A stretch of DNA of 64,000 bases from Escherichia coli (GCF_022846255.1 NZ_AP025682.1); one strand, 5' to 3'; counted from the first letter of the stretch, positions 27,642-42,480 are shown. Numbers and translations: made by a program. Notes: generated from the sequence alone by a model not told the origin.

Positions 27642-27977
27642 ATGGATAAAGAACGCATCATTCAGGAATTTGTGCCCGGTAAACAGGTCACACTGGCGCA
27701 TCTCATCGCGCATCCCGGCGAGGAACTGGCGAAGAAAATCGGCGTTCCGGATGCGGGCGCAATCGGCATTATGACGCTAACTCCCGGAGAAACGGCGATG
27801 ATCGCCGGTGATTTAGCGTTGAAAGCCGCCGATGTGCATATCGGTTTTCTCGACCGTTTTAGCGGCGCGCTGGTGATTTATGGCTCGGTGGGCGCAGTAG
27901 AAGAAGCGTTATCACAAACCGTCAGTGGTTTAGGACGCTTATTAAATTATACGCTTTGTGAAATGACCAAAAGTTAA
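27642..27977 (+). CDS. eutS: EutS bacterial microcompartment shell protein (111 aa)
   Basis: Start at [15 protein letters not shown] inside ORF-track ORF 27570..27977; first gene of eut operon. Confidence 0.9.
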
Positions 27978-27989
27978 TACGAGGCATTC

Positions 27990-28469
27990 ATGAAACGAAT
28001 TGCGTTTGTGGGTACCGTCGGGGCAGGAAAAACAACGTTATTTAATGCGTTGCAGGGGAATTATACCCTCGCAAGAAAAACACAGGCCGTGGAATTTAAT
28101 GATAATGGCGATATCGATACGCCGGGTGAATATTTTAGCCATCCCCGCTGGTATCACGCCTTAATTACCACGCTACAGGATGTGGACATGCTGATCTATG
28201 TCCACGGCGCGAATGACCCGGAAAGTCGGTTGCCTGCCGGGTTGCTGGATATTGGCGTCAGCAAACGGCAAATCGCCGTCATCAGTAAAACGGACATGCC
28301 AGATGCTGACGTCGCCGCAACGCGAAAGTTATTGCTTGAGACGGGCTTCGAAGAGCCGATTTTCGAGCTAAACAGCCACGACCCGCAAAGCGTGCAGCAA
28401 CTGGTGGATTATCTGGCATCTCTCACCAAACAGGAGGAAGCAGGTGAAAAAACTCATCACAGCGAATGA
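27990..28469 (+). CDS. eutP: EutP, EutP/PduV-family P-loop protein (159 aa)
   Basis: Walker A GTVGAGKTT; overlaps eutQ start. Confidence 0.9.
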   Translation: MKRIAFVGTVGAGKTTLFNALQGNYTLARKTQAVEFNDNGDIDTPGEYFSHPRWYHALITTLQDVDMLIYVHGANDPESRLPAGLLDIGVSKRQIAVISKTDMPDADVAATRKLLLETGFEEPIFELNSHDPQSVQQLVDYLASLTKQEEAGEKTHHSE

Positions 28470-29145
28470 TATTCGTGAAGCACACGCGCGCGGCGAACTG
28501 GCAATGTCCGTGGTTCTGCGCGCCAGCATTATTACCCCGGAAGCTCGTGAAGTGGCTGATCTGTTGGGTTTTACCATCACCGAATGTGATGAATCGATCC
28601 CGGTAACGGCGTCTGTTCCCGCCAGCGCATCAGCCGATAAAACCGAAAGCCAGCGCATCCGTGAAACCATTATCGCCCAACTGCCGGAAGGTCAGTTTAC
28701 CGAAAGCCTGGTCGCGCAGCTGATGGAAAAAGTGATGAAGGAAAAACAGTCGCTGGAACAGGGTGCACTGCAGCCGAGCTTTAAATCGGTGACCGGCAAA
28801 GGCGGCATCAAAGTTATTGATGGCAGCAGCGTCAAGTTTGGTCGTTTCGACGGCGCACAGCCGCACTGTGTAGGCTTGACTGATCTCGTGACCGGAGACG
28901 ACGGCAGCAGTATGGCCGCTGGTTTCATGCAGTGGGAGAACGCATTCTTCCCGTGGACTCTGAACTACGACGAAATCGACATGGTGCTGGAAGGGGAGCT
29001 GCATGTTCGCCACGAAGGCGAAACTATGATCGCCAAAGCGGGCGATGTGATGTTTATCCCGAAAGGCTCCAGCATCGAATTTGGTACGACATCCAGCGTG
29101 AAATTTCTGTATGTCGCCTGGCCGGCTAACTGGCAATCCCTATGA
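28444..29145 (+). CDS. eutQ: EutQ cupin-fold microcompartment-associated protein (233 aa)
   Basis: ORF track; position and length match EutQ. Confidence 0.9.
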   Translation: MKKLITANDIREAHARGELAMSVVLRASIITPEAREVADLLGFTITECDESIPVTASVPASASADKTESQRIRETIIAQLPEGQFTESLVAQLMEKVMKEKQSLEQGALQPSFKSVTGKGGIKVIDGSSVKFGRFDGAQPHCVGLTDLVTGDDGSSMAAGFMQWENAFFPWTLNYDEIDMVLEGELHVRHEGETMIAKAGDVMFIPKGSSIEFGTTSSVKFLYVAWPANWQSL

Positions 29146-29945
29146 AAGATTTCATCACCGAAGCATGGCTAAGAGCGAACCATACGCTCAGCGAAGGCGC
29201 AGAGATCCATCTCCCTGCGGACAGTCGCCTGACGCCCTCTGCCCGGGAGTTACTGGAAAGCCGCCATCTGCGCATCAAGTTTATTGACGAGCAGGGCCGC
29301 CTGTTTGTTGACGATGAACAGCAGCAGCCGCAGCCCGTTCACGGGCTGACCAGTAGCGATGAACATCCGCAGGCGTGCTGCGAACTGTGCCGCCAGCCGG
29401 TGGCAAAAAAGCCGGATACGCTGACTCACCTGTCGGCGGAAAAAATAGTTGCCAAAAGCGATCCGCGCCTGGCTTTTCGCGCTGTTCTCGACAGCACCAT
29501 TGCGCTGGCAGTGTGGCTGCAAATTGAACTGGCGGAACCGTGGCAGCCGTGGCTGGCGGATATCCGTTCGCGTCTTGGCAACATTATGCGCGCTGATGCG
29601 CTGGGGGAACCGCTGGCCTGCCAGGCGATTGTCGGGCTTTCTGACGAAGATCTGCATCGGCTTTCTCATCAACCGCTGCGCTATCTTGGTCACGATCATC
29701 TGGTGCCGGAAGCCAGCCACGGACGCGATGCGGCGTTGCTCAATCTGCTACGCACCAAAGTGCGGGAAACCGAAACCGTAGCAGCGCAGGTATTTATCAC
29801 CCGCAGCTTTGAAGTATTACGCCCGGACATCTTGCAGGCGCTGAACCGCCTTTCCAGCACGGTTTACGTGATGATGATCCTGAGCGTAGCGAAACAACCG
29901 CTAACGGTGAAGCAGATCCAACAACGACTGGGGGAAACGCAATGA
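29142..29945 (+). CDS. eutT: EutT corrinoid adenosyltransferase (267 aa)
   Basis: ORF track; 4-bp overlap with eutQ stop. Confidence 0.9.
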
Positions 29946-40209: not shown

Positions 40210-40869
40210 ATGCCAGCTTTAGATTTGATTCGACCGTCAGTAACCGCCATGCGGGTGATTGCCTCCGTTAACGCCGAATTTGCACGTGAACTGAAATTGC
40301 CGCCGCATATTCGTAGCCTCGGGCTGATTTCTGCTGATTCAGATGACGTCACCTACATTGCGGCTGACGAAGCGACCAAGCAGGCGATGGTCGAAGTGGT
40401 ATATGGTCGCTCGCTGTATGCGGGCGCTGCACACGGCCCGTCACCGACTGCCGGTGAGGTGCTGATTATGCTTGGTGGACCAAACCCGGCGGAAGTGCGT
40501 GCTGGTCTGGATGCGATGGTTGCGAATATTGAAAATGGCGCTGCTTTCCAGTGGGCAAATGACGCAGAAAACACAGCCTTCCTGGCACATGTAGTTTCGC
40601 GTACCGGTTCTTATCTCTCATCAACCGCCGGGATCACGCTTGGCGATCCGATGGCGTATCTGGTGGCACCGCCGCTGGAAGCGACCTACGGCATTGATGC
40701 AGCGTTGAAATCTGCCGACGTGCAGTTGGTGACCTATGTCCCGCCGCCGTCTGAAACCAACTACTCGGCAGCATTTTTAACCGGTAGCCAGGCCGCGTGT
40801 AAAGCAGCCTGTAACGCCTTTACCGATGCAGTGCTGGAAATCGCGCGTAATCCTATCCAGCGTGCGTAA
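40210..40869 (+). CDS. eutL: EutL tandem-BMC-domain shell protein (219 aa)
   Basis: ORF track. Confidence 0.92.
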
Positions 40870-40875
40870 CGGAGG

Positions 40876-41382
40876 TTGCCGATGATCAATGCACTGGGAT
40901 TGCTGGAAGTGGACGGCATGGTCGCCGCGATAGATGCAGCTGATGCCATGCTCAAAGCAGCTAACGTTCGTCTGCTCAGTCACGAAGTGCTTGACCCTGG
41001 TCGCCTAACGCTGGTGGTGGAAGGCGATCTGGCGGCGTGTCGTGCGGCGCTGGACGCAGGTTGTGCTGCCGCGATGCGTACCGGGCGTGTCATCAGCCGT
41101 AAGGAGATCGGTCGGCCAGACGATGACACTCAGTGGCTGGTTACTGGCTTTAACCGCCAGCCGAAGCAACCCGTAAAGGAACCCGACGCGCCAGTTATCG
41201 TCGCGGAATCTGCTGACGAGTTGTTGGCGCTGTTAACATCAGTACGTCAGGGAATGACGGCAGGAGAAGTGGCTGCCCACTTTGGCTGGCCGCTGGAAAA
41301 AGCCAGAAATGCGCTCGAACAGCTCTTTTCTGCCGGGACGTTACGTAAACGCAGTAGTCGTTACCGTCTCAAGCCCCATTAA
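40876..41382 (+). CDS. eutK: EutK BMC shell protein with C-terminal extension (168 aa)
   Basis: BMC-domain N-terminus MINALGLLEVDGMVAAIDAADAMLKAANV. Confidence 0.9.
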   Translation: MPMINALGLLEVDGMVAAIDAADAMLKAANVRLLSHEVLDPGRLTLVVEGDLAACRAALDAGCAAAMRTGRVISRKEIGRPDDDTQWLVTGFNRQPKQPVKEPDAPVIVAESADELLALLTSVRQGMTAGEVAAHFGWPLEKARNALEQLFSAGTLRKRSSRYRLKPH

Positions 41383-41427
41383 CCTGTCGGAGGTGCCGGG
41401 TGTCCTACAACACCCGGCATTAACATC

Positions 41428-42480
41428 ATGAAAAAGACCCGTACAGCCAATTTGCACCATCTTTATCATGAACCCTTACCCGAAAACCTGAAGCTCACGC
41501 CGAAGGTCGAAGTGGATAATGTTCATCAACGACAGACAACGGACGTCTATGAACATGCTTTGACAATTACCGCCTGGCAGCAGATTTACGATCAGCTGCA
41601 TCCGGGCAAGTTTCATGGTGAATTTACGGAAATTCTACTCGATGATATTCAGGTTTTTCGTGAATACACTGGTCTGGCGCTGCGTCAGTCGTGCCTGGTC
41701 TGGCCGAACTCGTTCTGGTTTGGCATTCCGGCGACGCGCGGTGAGCAGGGATTTATCGGTTCGCAATGTCTGGGAAGCGCAGAAATTGCGACGCGCCCTG
41801 GTGGAACCGAGTTTGAATTAAGTACGCCGGACGATTACACGATCCTTGGCGTAGTGCTTTCTGAAGATGTCATCACTCGTCAGGCTAACTTTTTGCATAA
41901 TCCGGATCGGGTATTACATATGCTGCGTAGCCAGTCGGCGCTGGAAGTGAAAGAGCAGCATAAAGCCGCTCTGTGGGGCTTTGTCCAACAGGCGCTGGCG
42001 ACGTTTTGCGAAAACCCGGAAAATCTCCATCAGCCTGCAGTGCGAAAAGTGCTGGGGGATAATTTGCTAATGGCGATGGGGGCGATGCTGGAAGAAGCGC
42101 AGCCGATGATGACGGCGGAAAGCATCAGTCATCAGAGTTACCGTCGATTGCTTTCCCGCGCCCGTGAATATGTGCTGGAAAACATGTCCGAACCGGTGAC
42201 GGTGCTGGACTTGTGTAATCAACTGCATGTCAGCCGCCGCACGCTACAAAACGCGTTTCACGCCATTTTGGGCATTGGTCCGAACGCGTGGCTGAAACGT
42301 ATTCGCCTGAACGCCGTGCGCCGCGAACTCATAAGTCCGTGGTCACAAAGCACAACGGTAAAAGACGCCGCCATGCAGTGGGGATTCTGGCATCTTGGGC
42401 AATTTGCCACGGATTATCAGCAACTGTTTGCCGAGAAGCCGTCACTGACGCTGCATCAGCGGATGCGAGAGTGGGGGTGA
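41428..42480 (+). CDS. eutR: EutR AraC-family transcriptional activator of the eut operon (350 aa)
   Basis: ORF track; C-terminal AraC-type HTH; last gene of operon. Confidence 0.92.

Follow-up and report, generated by a model that had tools for sequence, protein, structure and literature searches.

The question raised by positions 27642-42480 of the 64,000-nucleotide stretch of Escherichia coli DNA analyzed here (the window) is whether they carry a complete and intact ethanolamine utilization (eut) operon and whether any part of it is new. We found that the region, on the plus strand, almost certainly represents an E. coli chromosomal eut operon of the EUT1 type in intact form. The ORF map (27642-42480) contains 17 uninterrupted open reading frames in the order eutS-P-Q-T-D-M-N-E-J-G-H-A-B-C-L-K-R (Table 1), and for each of them the corresponding NCBIfam model (equivalog or subfamily) matched at full length and far above the curated cut-off. 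The models for EutG, EutQ, and EutP are Eut-specific, and EutE and EutD were matched by general subfamily models (for aldehyde dehydrogenases and phosphotransacetylases, respectively), which NCBI applies to these proteins. ORF map and model matches thus agree with a preceding interpretation of the DNA (the sequence-only reading), according to which all 17 eut genes are present, co-oriented, and full length. That reading had stated beforehand that it would be refuted if realignment revealed a frameshifted or prematurely terminated eut ORF. The realignment to E. coli LF82 was negative in this respect, and neither this comparison nor the ORF map revealed internal stops or frameshifts in the 17 eut ORFs, the lengths of which all equal those annotated in the LF82 RefSeq entry. 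The canonical gene order was found on one strand, without foreign insertion and colinear with LF82, and the order from eutS to eutK also occurs in other Enterobacteriaceae and in one Pseudomonas locus. Taken together, family assignment, order, length, context, and similarity to annotated or structurally solved Eut proteins support, at the sequence level, a complete canonical operon, and no evidence against an intact operon was found in the sequence.

Table 1. Coordinates of the eut genes and of noncoding features in the window
Feature	Position	Strand	Description and basis
Putative main promoter P1 and activator region	27540-27613	+	Conserved 74-bp block 5' of eutS
AGTGATCTACCTCACC	27542-27557	+	CRP-like match within upstream block
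TTGCCGAATTTTGTTATTTAC	27570-27590	+	Within conserved block 5' of eutS
TGTCACGAT	27604-27612	+	Resembles extended -10
eutS	27642-27977	+	Bent-hexamer BMC shell protein, 111 aa; NF012012 1-111/111, 247 bits (cut-off 123); Pfam BMC; PDB 3i96 (E. coli EutS), E 1e-68; 100% nt identity to LF82
eutP	27990-28469	+	Acetate kinase/GTPase-like protein, 159 aa; NF012011 1-159/159, 351 bits
eutQ	28444-29145	+	Cupin acetate kinase, shell-cargo linker, 233 aa; NF012001 1-233/233, 498 bits; Pfam EutQ
eutT	29142-29945	+	Corrinoid adenosyltransferase, 267 aa; NF011595 1-267/267, 567 bits; identical to BDH32500.1
eutD	29942-30958	+	Phosphotransacetylase, 338 aa; NF007233, 411 bits; 100% nt identity to LF82
eutM	30997-31290	+	Major hexameric shell protein, 97 aa; NF012018 1-97/97; PDB 3i6p/3mpw
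Hairpin 1	31298-31323	+	10-bp stem GTGACGTC / GGCGTCAC, 6-nt loop; C/T-rich tail 31324-31340
Hairpin 2	31325-31365	+	Inner stem 31341-31347 / 31352-31358 nested in CTCTCCT / GGGGGAG; fold
Single-stranded TTACCTGAA	31369-31377	+	Conserved; alignment and RNAalifold; element 31369-31396
Small hairpin	31381-31384 / 31390-31393	+	Holds eutN Shine-Dalgarno GGAGG (31387-31391)
eutN	31397-31684	+	Pentameric vertex protein, 95 aa; NF011992 1-95/95, 210 bits; Pfam EutN_CcmL; PDB 2hd3/2z9h
eutE	31696-33099	+	CoA-acylating acetaldehyde dehydrogenase, 467 aa; NF011927, 739 bits
eutJ	33110-33946	+	Actin/Hsp70-fold protein, 278 aa; NF011660, 399 bits
eutG	33936-35123	+	Iron-type alcohol dehydrogenase, 395 aa; NF011998 1-394/395, 887 bits
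GC-rich imperfect palindromic repeat	35138-35241		Inside eutG-eutH gap; inverted repeats
eutH	35293-36519	+	Ethanolamine permease, 408 aa; NF011665 1-408/408, 873 bits (cut-off 574)
eutA	36516-37919	+	Ethanolamine ammonia-lyase reactivase, 467 aa, GTG start; NF007991 1-467/467, 1067 bits (cut-off 799)
eutA-eutB gap	37920-37930		11 bp, empty; CPZ-55 site in K-12 MG1655
eutB	37931-39292	+	Ethanolamine ammonia-lyase large subunit, 453 aa; NF011649, 663 bits (cut-off 554)
eutC	39313-40200	+	Ethanolamine ammonia-lyase small subunit, 295 aa; NF003971, 340 bits (cut-off 230)
eutL	40210-40869	+	Pseudohexameric tandem-BMC shell protein, 219 aa; NF011934, 401 bits; PDB 3gfh/3i82
eutK	40882-41382	+	BMC shell protein, C-terminal helix-turn-helix-like domain, 166 aa; NF012010 1-166/166; PDB 3i71
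eutR	41428-42480	+	AraC-family activator, 350 aa, last gene; NF007522 1-350/350, 790 bits (cut-off 319)

The five shell proteins proposed before (EutS, EutM, EutN, EutL, EutK) all scored above the cut-offs of their own models and carry the expected Pfam domains, so that the shell set is complete: EutL contains two stretches of PF00936 (BMC), which was also found in EutS, EutM, and EutK; EutN carries PF03319 (EutN_CcmL), and EutK additionally carries EutK_C. Near-identical E. coli structures are available in the PDB for EutS, EutM, EutN, EutL, the C-terminal domain of EutK, and EutB. Since shell homology may be misleading, a different type of microcompartment (propanediol, choline, glycyl-radical) might have been misread as eut, and EutM, EutS, EutL, and EutN do show weaker matches to PduA, PduU, PduB, and carboxysome shell models. 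However, the Pdu and carboxysome matches were far under their cut-offs, both subunits of the signature enzyme (EutB, EutC) exceeded theirs, with EutB matching PDB 3abo over residues 1-453 (1015 bits), and EutA, EutT, EutH, and EutR are eut-specific equivalogs. This misassignment, to which we attach next to no probability, is refuted by the present data. The aldehyde and cofactor enzymes (EutE, EutG, EutD, EutQ, EutP) and the accessory proteins (EutA, EutT, EutH, EutJ) are all present at full length, and the C-terminus of EutR carries HTH_18/HTH_AraC domains (Pfam).

Inspection of the gene borders indicated that the overlaps listed in the sequence-only reading (4 bp each for eutQ/T, eutT/D, and eutH/A, 11 bp for eutJ/G) are all correct, but the list left out a 26-bp overlap of eutP with eutQ, which starts with GTG at 28444. 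In Salmonella, eutQ codons 1-9 overlap eutP as well (PMC12487888). The accompanying description of the gaps as tight or overlapping does not hold for eutD-M (38 bp), eutM-N (106 bp), eutG-H (169 bp), and eutK-R (45 bp). The start of eutM is most likely at 30997 (97 aa) and not at the first ATG (30955), since the alignment of NF012018 begins at residue 15 of the extended ORF and the RefSeq start is the same. For eutK the start is at 40882, and the NF012010 alignment likewise begins inside the extended ORF, at residue 3.

The operon as such is already known and very well studied, and the observation is right without being novel. Among 5,426 complete genomes of E. coli, 5,176 (about 95%) contain an unbroken stretch that covers at least 80% of the eut block (megablast). 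All eight proteins that were looked up have exact copies in the public collection, and six of them correspond to the consecutively numbered GenBank entries BDH32500, 04, 05, 06, 08, and 10 of one E. coli contig. Because these exact entries (BDH32500-32510) exist, the locus has already been annotated, and its earlier characterization as well described rather than novel is in line with public annotation and with the known Eut systems.

At the level of alleles, the region is less common. The alignment to LF82 covers 21.2 kb with 98.4% identity and without indels (98.2% nucleotide identity for the eut block), and blocks matching LF82 at about 100% are interspersed with blocks of 3-5% divergence (29400-29900, 31900-39400). 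For the divergent blocks, including the central 7.5 kb, no match above 98.0% was found among the 5,426 complete RefSeq E. coli genomes, and these exact alleles are therefore without prior characterization. Rare alleles are present for EutT and EutA, each seen on only two contigs, and there are 31 amino acid differences from LF82, which are concentrated in EutT, EutJ, EutG, and EutA. These data would suit an operon that is structurally complete but silent or nonfunctional because of a regulatory defect, missense changes in the rarer EutT, EutA, EutG, or EutJ alleles, or corrinoid uptake lost elsewhere; PMC11101070, which describes some E. coli gut isolates as able to metabolize ethanolamine, may be read in the same direction. 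We consider such a loss of function quite improbable. Among 4815 codons there were 232 synonymous but only 31 nonsynonymous differences, which indicates purifying selection, all proteins score at full-length equivalog level, and other E. coli have an almost identical promoter block. Moreover, K-12 W3110, in which the operon is intact, grows on ethanolamine plus B12, induces the Eut proteins, and forms microcompartments (PMC11334477).

Upstream of eutS, positions 27540-27613 hardly vary among 19 taxa that span Escherichia to Buttiauxella, and the DNA further upstream could not be aligned. This conservation suggests that the block is the probable main promoter P1 with its activator region. The CRP-like match at its 5' end is by itself without significance, and a generic sigma-70 scan detected no site within the block, as expected for an activator-dependent promoter. 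EutR binds the eutS promoter (PMC4643982, PMC5821096). By analogy with Salmonella and E. coli work, EutR would activate the main promoter in the presence of ethanolamine and adenosylcobalamin, and a weak constitutive promoter preceding eutR would provide basal EutR for positive feedback. Neither a cobalamin riboswitch nor any other Rfam family was detected within the 64-kb window.

With a complete operon, E. coli would degrade ethanolamine within a protein-shelled compartment. As in the characterized systems, EutH is expected to import ethanolamine and EutBC to split it into ammonia and acetaldehyde, with EutA reactivating the lyase and EutT supplying its cofactor. Acetaldehyde would then be converted to acetyl-CoA by EutE or to ethanol by EutG; EutD would form acetyl-phosphate, and EutQ and EutP would yield acetate and ATP. 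The volatile toxic aldehyde would be held inside a shell composed mainly of EutM and EutL, with EutS and EutK as minor constituents and EutN pentamers at the vertices. E. coli requires an external corrinoid; anaerobic B12 synthesis is carried out by Salmonella but not by E. coli. As to cargo recruitment, EutC has an N-terminal extension preceding its conserved core (NF003971 starts at residue 52, Pfam EutC at residue 65), and the N-terminus of EutE (MNQQDIEQVVKAVLLKMQ) corresponds to the region of the Salmonella encapsulation peptide. In Salmonella, these peptides comprise residues 2-19 of EutC and 2-21 of EutE (PMC12487888). Judged from Salmonella and E. coli work, the N-terminal peptides of EutC and EutE together with the EutQ linker may recruit the cargo. 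The regulation and assembly model follows published work (PMC5821096, PMC12487888, PMC11334477, PMC4643982).

Two of the intergenic regions deserve a short comment. The eutA-eutB gap lacks the CPZ-55 prophage, which is present at this site in K-12 MG1655/BW25113 (PMC11334477). The repeat in the eutG-eutH gap (35138-35241) has additional megablast matches elsewhere, a plasmid included (the eut query matched a median of seven places per genome), and it probably serves no function within the operon. This gap is clearly a variable landing site, since its length differs among taxa (27 to 474 bp).

The one mildly new point at this otherwise known locus is the hairpin in the eutM-eutN spacer, and no description of a spacer element was found in the searchable literature. 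The spacer folds with -43.5 kcal/mol (z -2.7). Its first hairpin gave a terminator-like match in our scan, but a strong terminator was ruled out, since relative protein abundances in E. coli (EutM 96, EutE 27, EutB 37, EutN 1; PMC11334477) place the downstream products EutE and EutB far above EutN. The hairpin 1 motif is present as a single copy in the window and in each of the 26 fetched loci that have it (25 loci are without), and wherever eutM and eutN positions were mapped, it lies directly 3' of eutM.

Is this structure functional? It might be a tolerated remnant without function, with the gap serving as a permissive landing site for palindromes like that between eutG and eutH, and we put this reading just short of an even prospect. 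It is consistent with the REP elements that sit in the eutM-eutN gap of 14 of 43 loci (including Salmonella and Klebsiella) and with the fact that proteins encoded 3' of the spacer stay abundant (PMC11334477). Since the hairpin 1 sequence is invariant, it offers almost no covariation evidence, and the alignment across taxa gave no informative covariation for its stem. On the other hand, the GTGACGYC...GRCGTCAC motif is retained in at least five genera, with loop lengths between 6 nt and over 20 nt, and it has no further copy in the loci. Hairpin 2 shows both-side changes in four of six pairs across taxa, values that were reached in 0 of 500 shuffles. Every locus that was folded has some strong hairpin at this site, and the gap is never shorter than 52 bp in the 44 loci measured (a Clostridiales MAG set aside), as opposed to the 27 bp to which the eutG-eutH gap shrinks.

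These observations would suit a conserved cis-acting RNA element consisting of a specific hairpin, a covarying hairpin, TTACCTGAA, and a Shine-Dalgarno sequence partly located in a stem. Such an element could set the EutM:EutN ratio to about 100:1, with REP recruited for the same job where the native hairpin was lost. We propose this only tentatively and with clearly less than even confidence. The 106-bp structured spacer would uncouple eutN from eutM, and mRNA processing or stability together with limited translation initiation may hold EutN about 100-fold under EutM. If the element is real, it might act by throttling the initiation of eutN translation or through mRNA processing that protects the 3' end of the upstream segment. 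Salmonella, most Klebsiella, and some Citrobacter lack the native hairpin and have REP at the same site.

When compared with known systems, the operon has the same gene order, lengths, overlaps, and flanks as those of E. coli LF82 (NC_011993) and K-12 W3110. The flanks shared with LF82 are maeB upstream and hemF-amiA downstream, 9 of the 17 proteins are identical to their LF82 counterparts, and only allelic differences exist. The experimental reference system, the eut operon of Salmonella enterica serovar Typhimurium LT2, agrees with the present one in all 17 genes and their order, in the last-gene activator EutR, and in the overlap of eutQ with eutP; its P1/P2 promoter logic and its EutC and EutE targeting peptides probably have counterparts here (PMC5821096, PMC12487888). 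The loci of S. enterica subsp. diarizonae and arizonae (L028, L036) share 86-95% amino acid identity over the genes covered, but in their eutM-eutN spacers REP-type palindromes take the place of the GTGACGYC hairpin of the present operon. The long eut loci of Firmicutes (Enterococcus faecalis, Listeria monocytogenes) share the catabolic enzymes with it and have homologous shell proteins (PMC5821096), but their regulators are EutVW and an sRNA with an AdoCbl riboswitch, whereas the present operon has the AraC-type EutR and no EutVW among its 17 genes. The Pdu microcompartment involves another signature enzyme and another substrate, and all Pdu models remained far below their cut-offs here, but its shell is built from homologous blocks (PduA~EutM, PduU~EutS, PduB~EutL) and it follows the same aldehyde-trapping logic.

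The eut operon is a textbook system from which enteric bacteria draw nitrogen and carbon when the gut is inflamed; its regulator EutR also feeds virulence regulation in EHEC and Salmonella. When we mapped the open reading frames of the eut block (27642-42480), we found 17 consecutive genes on the + strand, and for each of them the best NCBIfam match was its own Eut model, which was covered over practically its full length with a score well in excess of the curated cut-off (see the table). The sequence-only reading had claimed 17 full-length eut genes on one strand, among them those of five shell proteins (EutS, EutM, EutN, EutL, EutK), and both claims were borne out, the latter also by the Pfam shell domains (BMC in EutS, EutM and EutK; EutL has two BMC stretches, EutN has EutN_CcmL, and EutK_C is present as well). 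The outcome that had been named as refuting this reading, a frameshift or a premature stop on careful realignment, was not observed: None of the 17 reading frames carries an internal stop, and the alignment with the E. coli reference strain LF82 (NC_011993) was free of indels over the 21.2 kb of block and flanks (98.4% identity). For the eut block alone, 98.2% identity and identical gene boundaries were obtained. All 17 genes are preceded by a plausible Shine-Dalgarno sequence, and the starts of eutM (97 aa) and eutK (166 aa) were assigned according to family models and RefSeq. The GTG start of eutQ creates a 26-bp overlap with eutP, and in Salmonella eutP is likewise overlapped by eutQ codons 1-9 (PMC12487888). 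Near-identical E. coli structures are available for EutS (3i96), EutM (3i6p/3mpw), EutN (2hd3/2z9h), EutL (3gfh/3i82), the C-terminal domain of EutK (3i71), and EutB (3abo).

Features of the eut block and its surroundings (window positions; one feature per line)
Feature	Position	Evidence or remark
EutS		NCBIfam model 1-111/111
EutP		NCBIfam model 1-159/159
EutQ	start 28444	NCBIfam model 1-233/233
EutT		NCBIfam model 1-267/267
EutD		NCBIfam phosphotransacetylase subfamily model, 411 bits
EutM	start 30997	NCBIfam model 1-97/97
EutN		NCBIfam model 1-95/95
EutE		NCBIfam, 739 bits
EutJ		NCBIfam, 399 bits
EutG		NCBIfam model 1-394/395
EutH		NCBIfam model 1-408/408
EutA		NCBIfam model 1-467/467
EutB		NCBIfam, 663 bits
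EutC		NCBIfam, 340 bits
EutL		NCBIfam, 401 bits
EutK	start 40882	NCBIfam model 1-166/166
EutR		NCBIfam model 1-350/350
CRP-like sequence AGTGATCTACCTCACC	27542-27557	in conserved 74-bp block, ~70 bp upstream of predicted start
TTGCCGAATTTTGTTATTTAC		second element of conserved 74-bp block (27570-27590)
Extended -10-like sequence TGTCACGAT (27604-27612)		in conserved 74-bp block
eutM-eutN spacer	31291-31396	
Hairpin 1	31298-31323	10-bp stem, C/T-rich tail
Hairpin 2	31325-31365	
eutG-eutH repeat	35138-35241	CCCCTCGCCC...GGGTGAGGGG...CCCTCACCCC
eutA-eutB gap	37920-37930	11 bp
eutR and hemF stop codons	42480-42486	5 bp between them

The gene junctions had been described as tight or overlapping. 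The listed overlaps (4 bp each for eutQ/eutT, eutT/eutD and eutH/eutA, 11 bp for eutJ/eutG) were exact, but the description does not apply to the wide eutM-eutN (106 bp) and eutG-eutH (169 bp) junctions. Long antisense reading frames (up to 332 aa; e.g., 36726-37724 on the - strand) within eutA, eutE and eutH are probably chance open frames of a GC-rich stretch, the GC content of which amounts to about 57% vs. about 50% in the flanks. The locus displays every sequence-testable property of gene content and gene order that marks the enterobacterial 17-gene eut operon. There was no hidden defect, insertion or unusual gene content in the eut block, and to this extent the contribution of our check is negative.

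The genomic setting is standard for E. coli, with the transaldolase gene tal and maeB on the upstream side and hemF, amiA, ypeA, yfeZ and yfeY on the downstream side. Outside the block and its flanks, the window matches chromosomes of E. coli with identities of up to 99.4% and 98.9%. Of the 5,426 complete E. coli genomes, 5,176 have at least 80% of the block in one piece; with about 95% of them carrying it unbroken, the operon is to be expected in a genome of this species. K-12 MG1655 is an exception, since the 6.79-kb cryptic prophage CPZ-55 resides inside its eutA-eutB gap; the corresponding gap of the window is empty. K-12 W3110, in which the operon is intact, uses ethanolamine, and the prophage carrier BW25113 is listed as eut- (PMC11334477). 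In an exact-sequence look-up, all eight Eut proteins queried were found in the public collection. EutT, EutE, EutJ, EutG, EutA and EutC correspond to GenBank entries BDH32500, 04, 05, 06, 08 and 10 of a single E. coli contig, and therefore the eut genes studied here had already been annotated. The window derives from this annotated genome or is identical to it, and the genome lies outside the RefSeq "complete" set. As the earlier judgment (well described, not novel) had it, the locus is a known one; it has been annotated before and most E. coli possess it, so that its interest is low. At the 3' end, eutR and hemF are convergent and their stop codons are as close as in LF82. This distance leaves no space for an intrinsic terminator and thus, eut transcription must end within the antisense strand of hemF or via Rho.

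Comparison of 4815 codons with LF82 revealed 232 synonymous but only 31 non-synonymous differences, and nine Eut proteins are identical to those of LF82; this pattern is a signature of purifying selection on the gene set. Identity to LF82 is about 100% at 27400-29400, 29900-31900 and 40400-43400, and divergence reaches 3-5% at 29400-29900 and 31900-39400. For the central 7.5 kb (31900-39400), no match above 98.0% was found among the 5,426 complete E. coli genomes. This segment is 91-98% identical to the loci of Escherichia sp. MOD1-EC7003, E. whittamii and Escherichia sp. E1V33. In nearly all 600-bp windows it is no closer to these cryptic loci than to E. coli LF82 or the O16:H48 strain, and import from a cryptic Escherichia clade was rejected for this reason. 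The mosaic resembles the outcome of ordinary homologous recombination between lineages of E. coli, and the divergent blocks probably reflect exchange with an unsampled one.

Upstream of eutS, we aligned 260 bp from 19 taxa. A 74-bp block (27540-27613) was almost invariant from Escherichia to Buttiauxella, and the DNA farther upstream was unalignable. We read this block, which contains three sequence elements (see the table), as the probable main promoter P1 plus activator site(s). The transcription start is predicted near 27619-27621. The CRP consensus (TGTGA-N6-TCACA, up to two mismatches) gave 19 matches in the window vs. 26 expected, which is not significant. Since the match itself is within chance, the backing for the CRP-like site is its cross-genus conservation. 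A generic sigma-70 scan of 27000-43000 was uninformative (one match, in eutN, vs. 8.8 expected). The Rfam gathering scan of the full window yielded zero families and thus, there is neither a cobalamin riboswitch nor a known sRNA in the window; tRNA genes were also absent from it. According to the Salmonella and E. coli literature, EutR depends on ethanolamine plus adenosylcobalamin to activate the main promoter in front of eutS, whereas the promoter preceding eutR is weak and constitutive (PMC5821096). Binding of EutR to the eutS promoter has been seen in vivo (PMC4643982).

The eutG-eutH gap harbors a GC-rich imperfect palindromic repeat. Part of this repeat is also found on a plasmid, and since a median of seven places per E. 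coli genome match the eut query, the extra places are attributed to it. A K-12-like strain has a gap of 216 bp, and in other taxa its length is 27-474 bp. With this variable length and a fold no better than that of shuffles (z -1.4), the spacer was rejected as a part of the operon, and we regard the gap as an insertion hot spot or repeat landing site.

The structured eutM-eutN spacer is the sole mildly new point of our analysis. Directly after eutM it carries the terminator-like hairpin 1. Terminator-like matches were not enriched (21 vs. 19.2 expected), and this one alone was singled out because of its position and its conservation. A 116-nt stretch including the spacer folded at -43.5 kcal/mol (z = -2.7). 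For comparison, 48 loci from species-representative genomes were fetched with EutN. Except for a distant Clostridiales MAG, the gap spans 52-211 bp in all measured loci, with the shortest spacer (52 bp) in Yokenella regensburgei ATCC 49455 (L035), and a strong hairpin was present in every locus folded (median z -2.2). A GTGACGYC-loop-GRCGTCAC hairpin, whose loop measures between 6 and more than 20 nt, was found in 25 of 43 sequences (Escherichia, Citrobacter freundii group, Klebsiella spallanzanii, Buttiauxella, Entomohabitans), and Yokenella has a compensated version (ATGACGCC/GGCGTCAT). In 14 of the 43 sequences, REP-type palindromes take its place; these include Salmonella, most Klebsiella (among them K. 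pneumoniae, K. oxytoca and K. michiganensis), some Citrobacter (C. koseri, C. amalonaticus) and Pseudocitrobacter. Exactly one copy of the GTGACGYC motif is present in the window, and the same holds for each of the 26 fetched loci having it; the motif lies just 3' of eutM wherever eutM and eutN were mapped. Downstream of hairpin 1 there is a second hairpin, in which compensatory changes are seen, and then the conserved TTACCTGAA. RNAalifold and pair counting gave 98% paired cells and five pairs changed on both sides (four in the second stem); these values were reached by 0 of 500 shuffles, with a structure derived from the same alignment, few lineages and a sequence-invariant stem of hairpin 1.

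Proteomics of E. coli indicated relative abundances of 96 for EutM, 1 for EutN, 27 for EutE and 37 for EutB, and the downstream-encoded EutE, EutB and EutL reached 27-39% of the maximum (PMC11334477). An efficient intrinsic terminator at hairpin 1 was rejected: its T-tract is interrupted and EutE, EutB and EutL are abundant downstream (PMC11334477), which excludes strong termination at the spacer. Translation of eutN or the processing/stability of the mRNA could be its target, and it may control the EutM:EutN ratio. A real function of the spacer is possible, if somewhat doubtful. No description of this element was found in the searchable literature. The spacer could be of interest to microcompartment engineers: if it does set the ratio of shell to vertex protein, synthetic microcompartment operons could have their stoichiometry tuned with a small, naturally occurring part.

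The sequence contains the complete parts list of the eut system, and by analogy its mode of operation would follow that described for Salmonella and E. coli, where EutM starts shell assembly and EutN gives the vertices their shape; in Salmonella, elongated assemblies result when eutN is lost. EutQ links the shell (EutM/EutL) to the cargo via N-terminal peptides of EutC and EutE (PMC12487888). N-terminal extensions that would correspond to these peptides are present on EutC and EutE here, and family-model alignments place that of EutC outside the conserved catalytic core. Among the fetched loci, Yokenella L035 carries 15 genes (S-P-Q-D-M-N-E-G-H-A-B-C-L-K-R), and neither eutT nor eutJ was detected there at the thresholds used. 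In Citrobacter koseri NCTC10786 (L019), eutS, eutT, eutE, eutJ, eutH and eutB showed best-segment identities of only 45-60% next to neighbours at 83-95%, a contrast that points to frameshifts, errors in the assembly or decay of this record. Three short contigs (L020, L034, L045; 446, 466 and 269 bp) belong to assemblies that bear the labels Gemelliphila, Prolixibacteraceae and Caballeronia. Their EutN is 87-100% identical to that of E. coli, and they most likely represent enterobacterial contamination. Outside the Enterobacteriaceae, the enterobacterial gene order was seen in Pseudomonas nitroreducens (L043), a Rhodocyclaceae MAG (L046) and Pseudothauera rhizosphaerae (L047); eutG was not detected in the latter two, both Rhodocyclales loci. 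From the Firmicute eut loci, the operon is set apart by its regulator and by the lack of any riboswitch. The Enterobacteriaceae and one Pseudomonas locus share the gene order of the operon described here.
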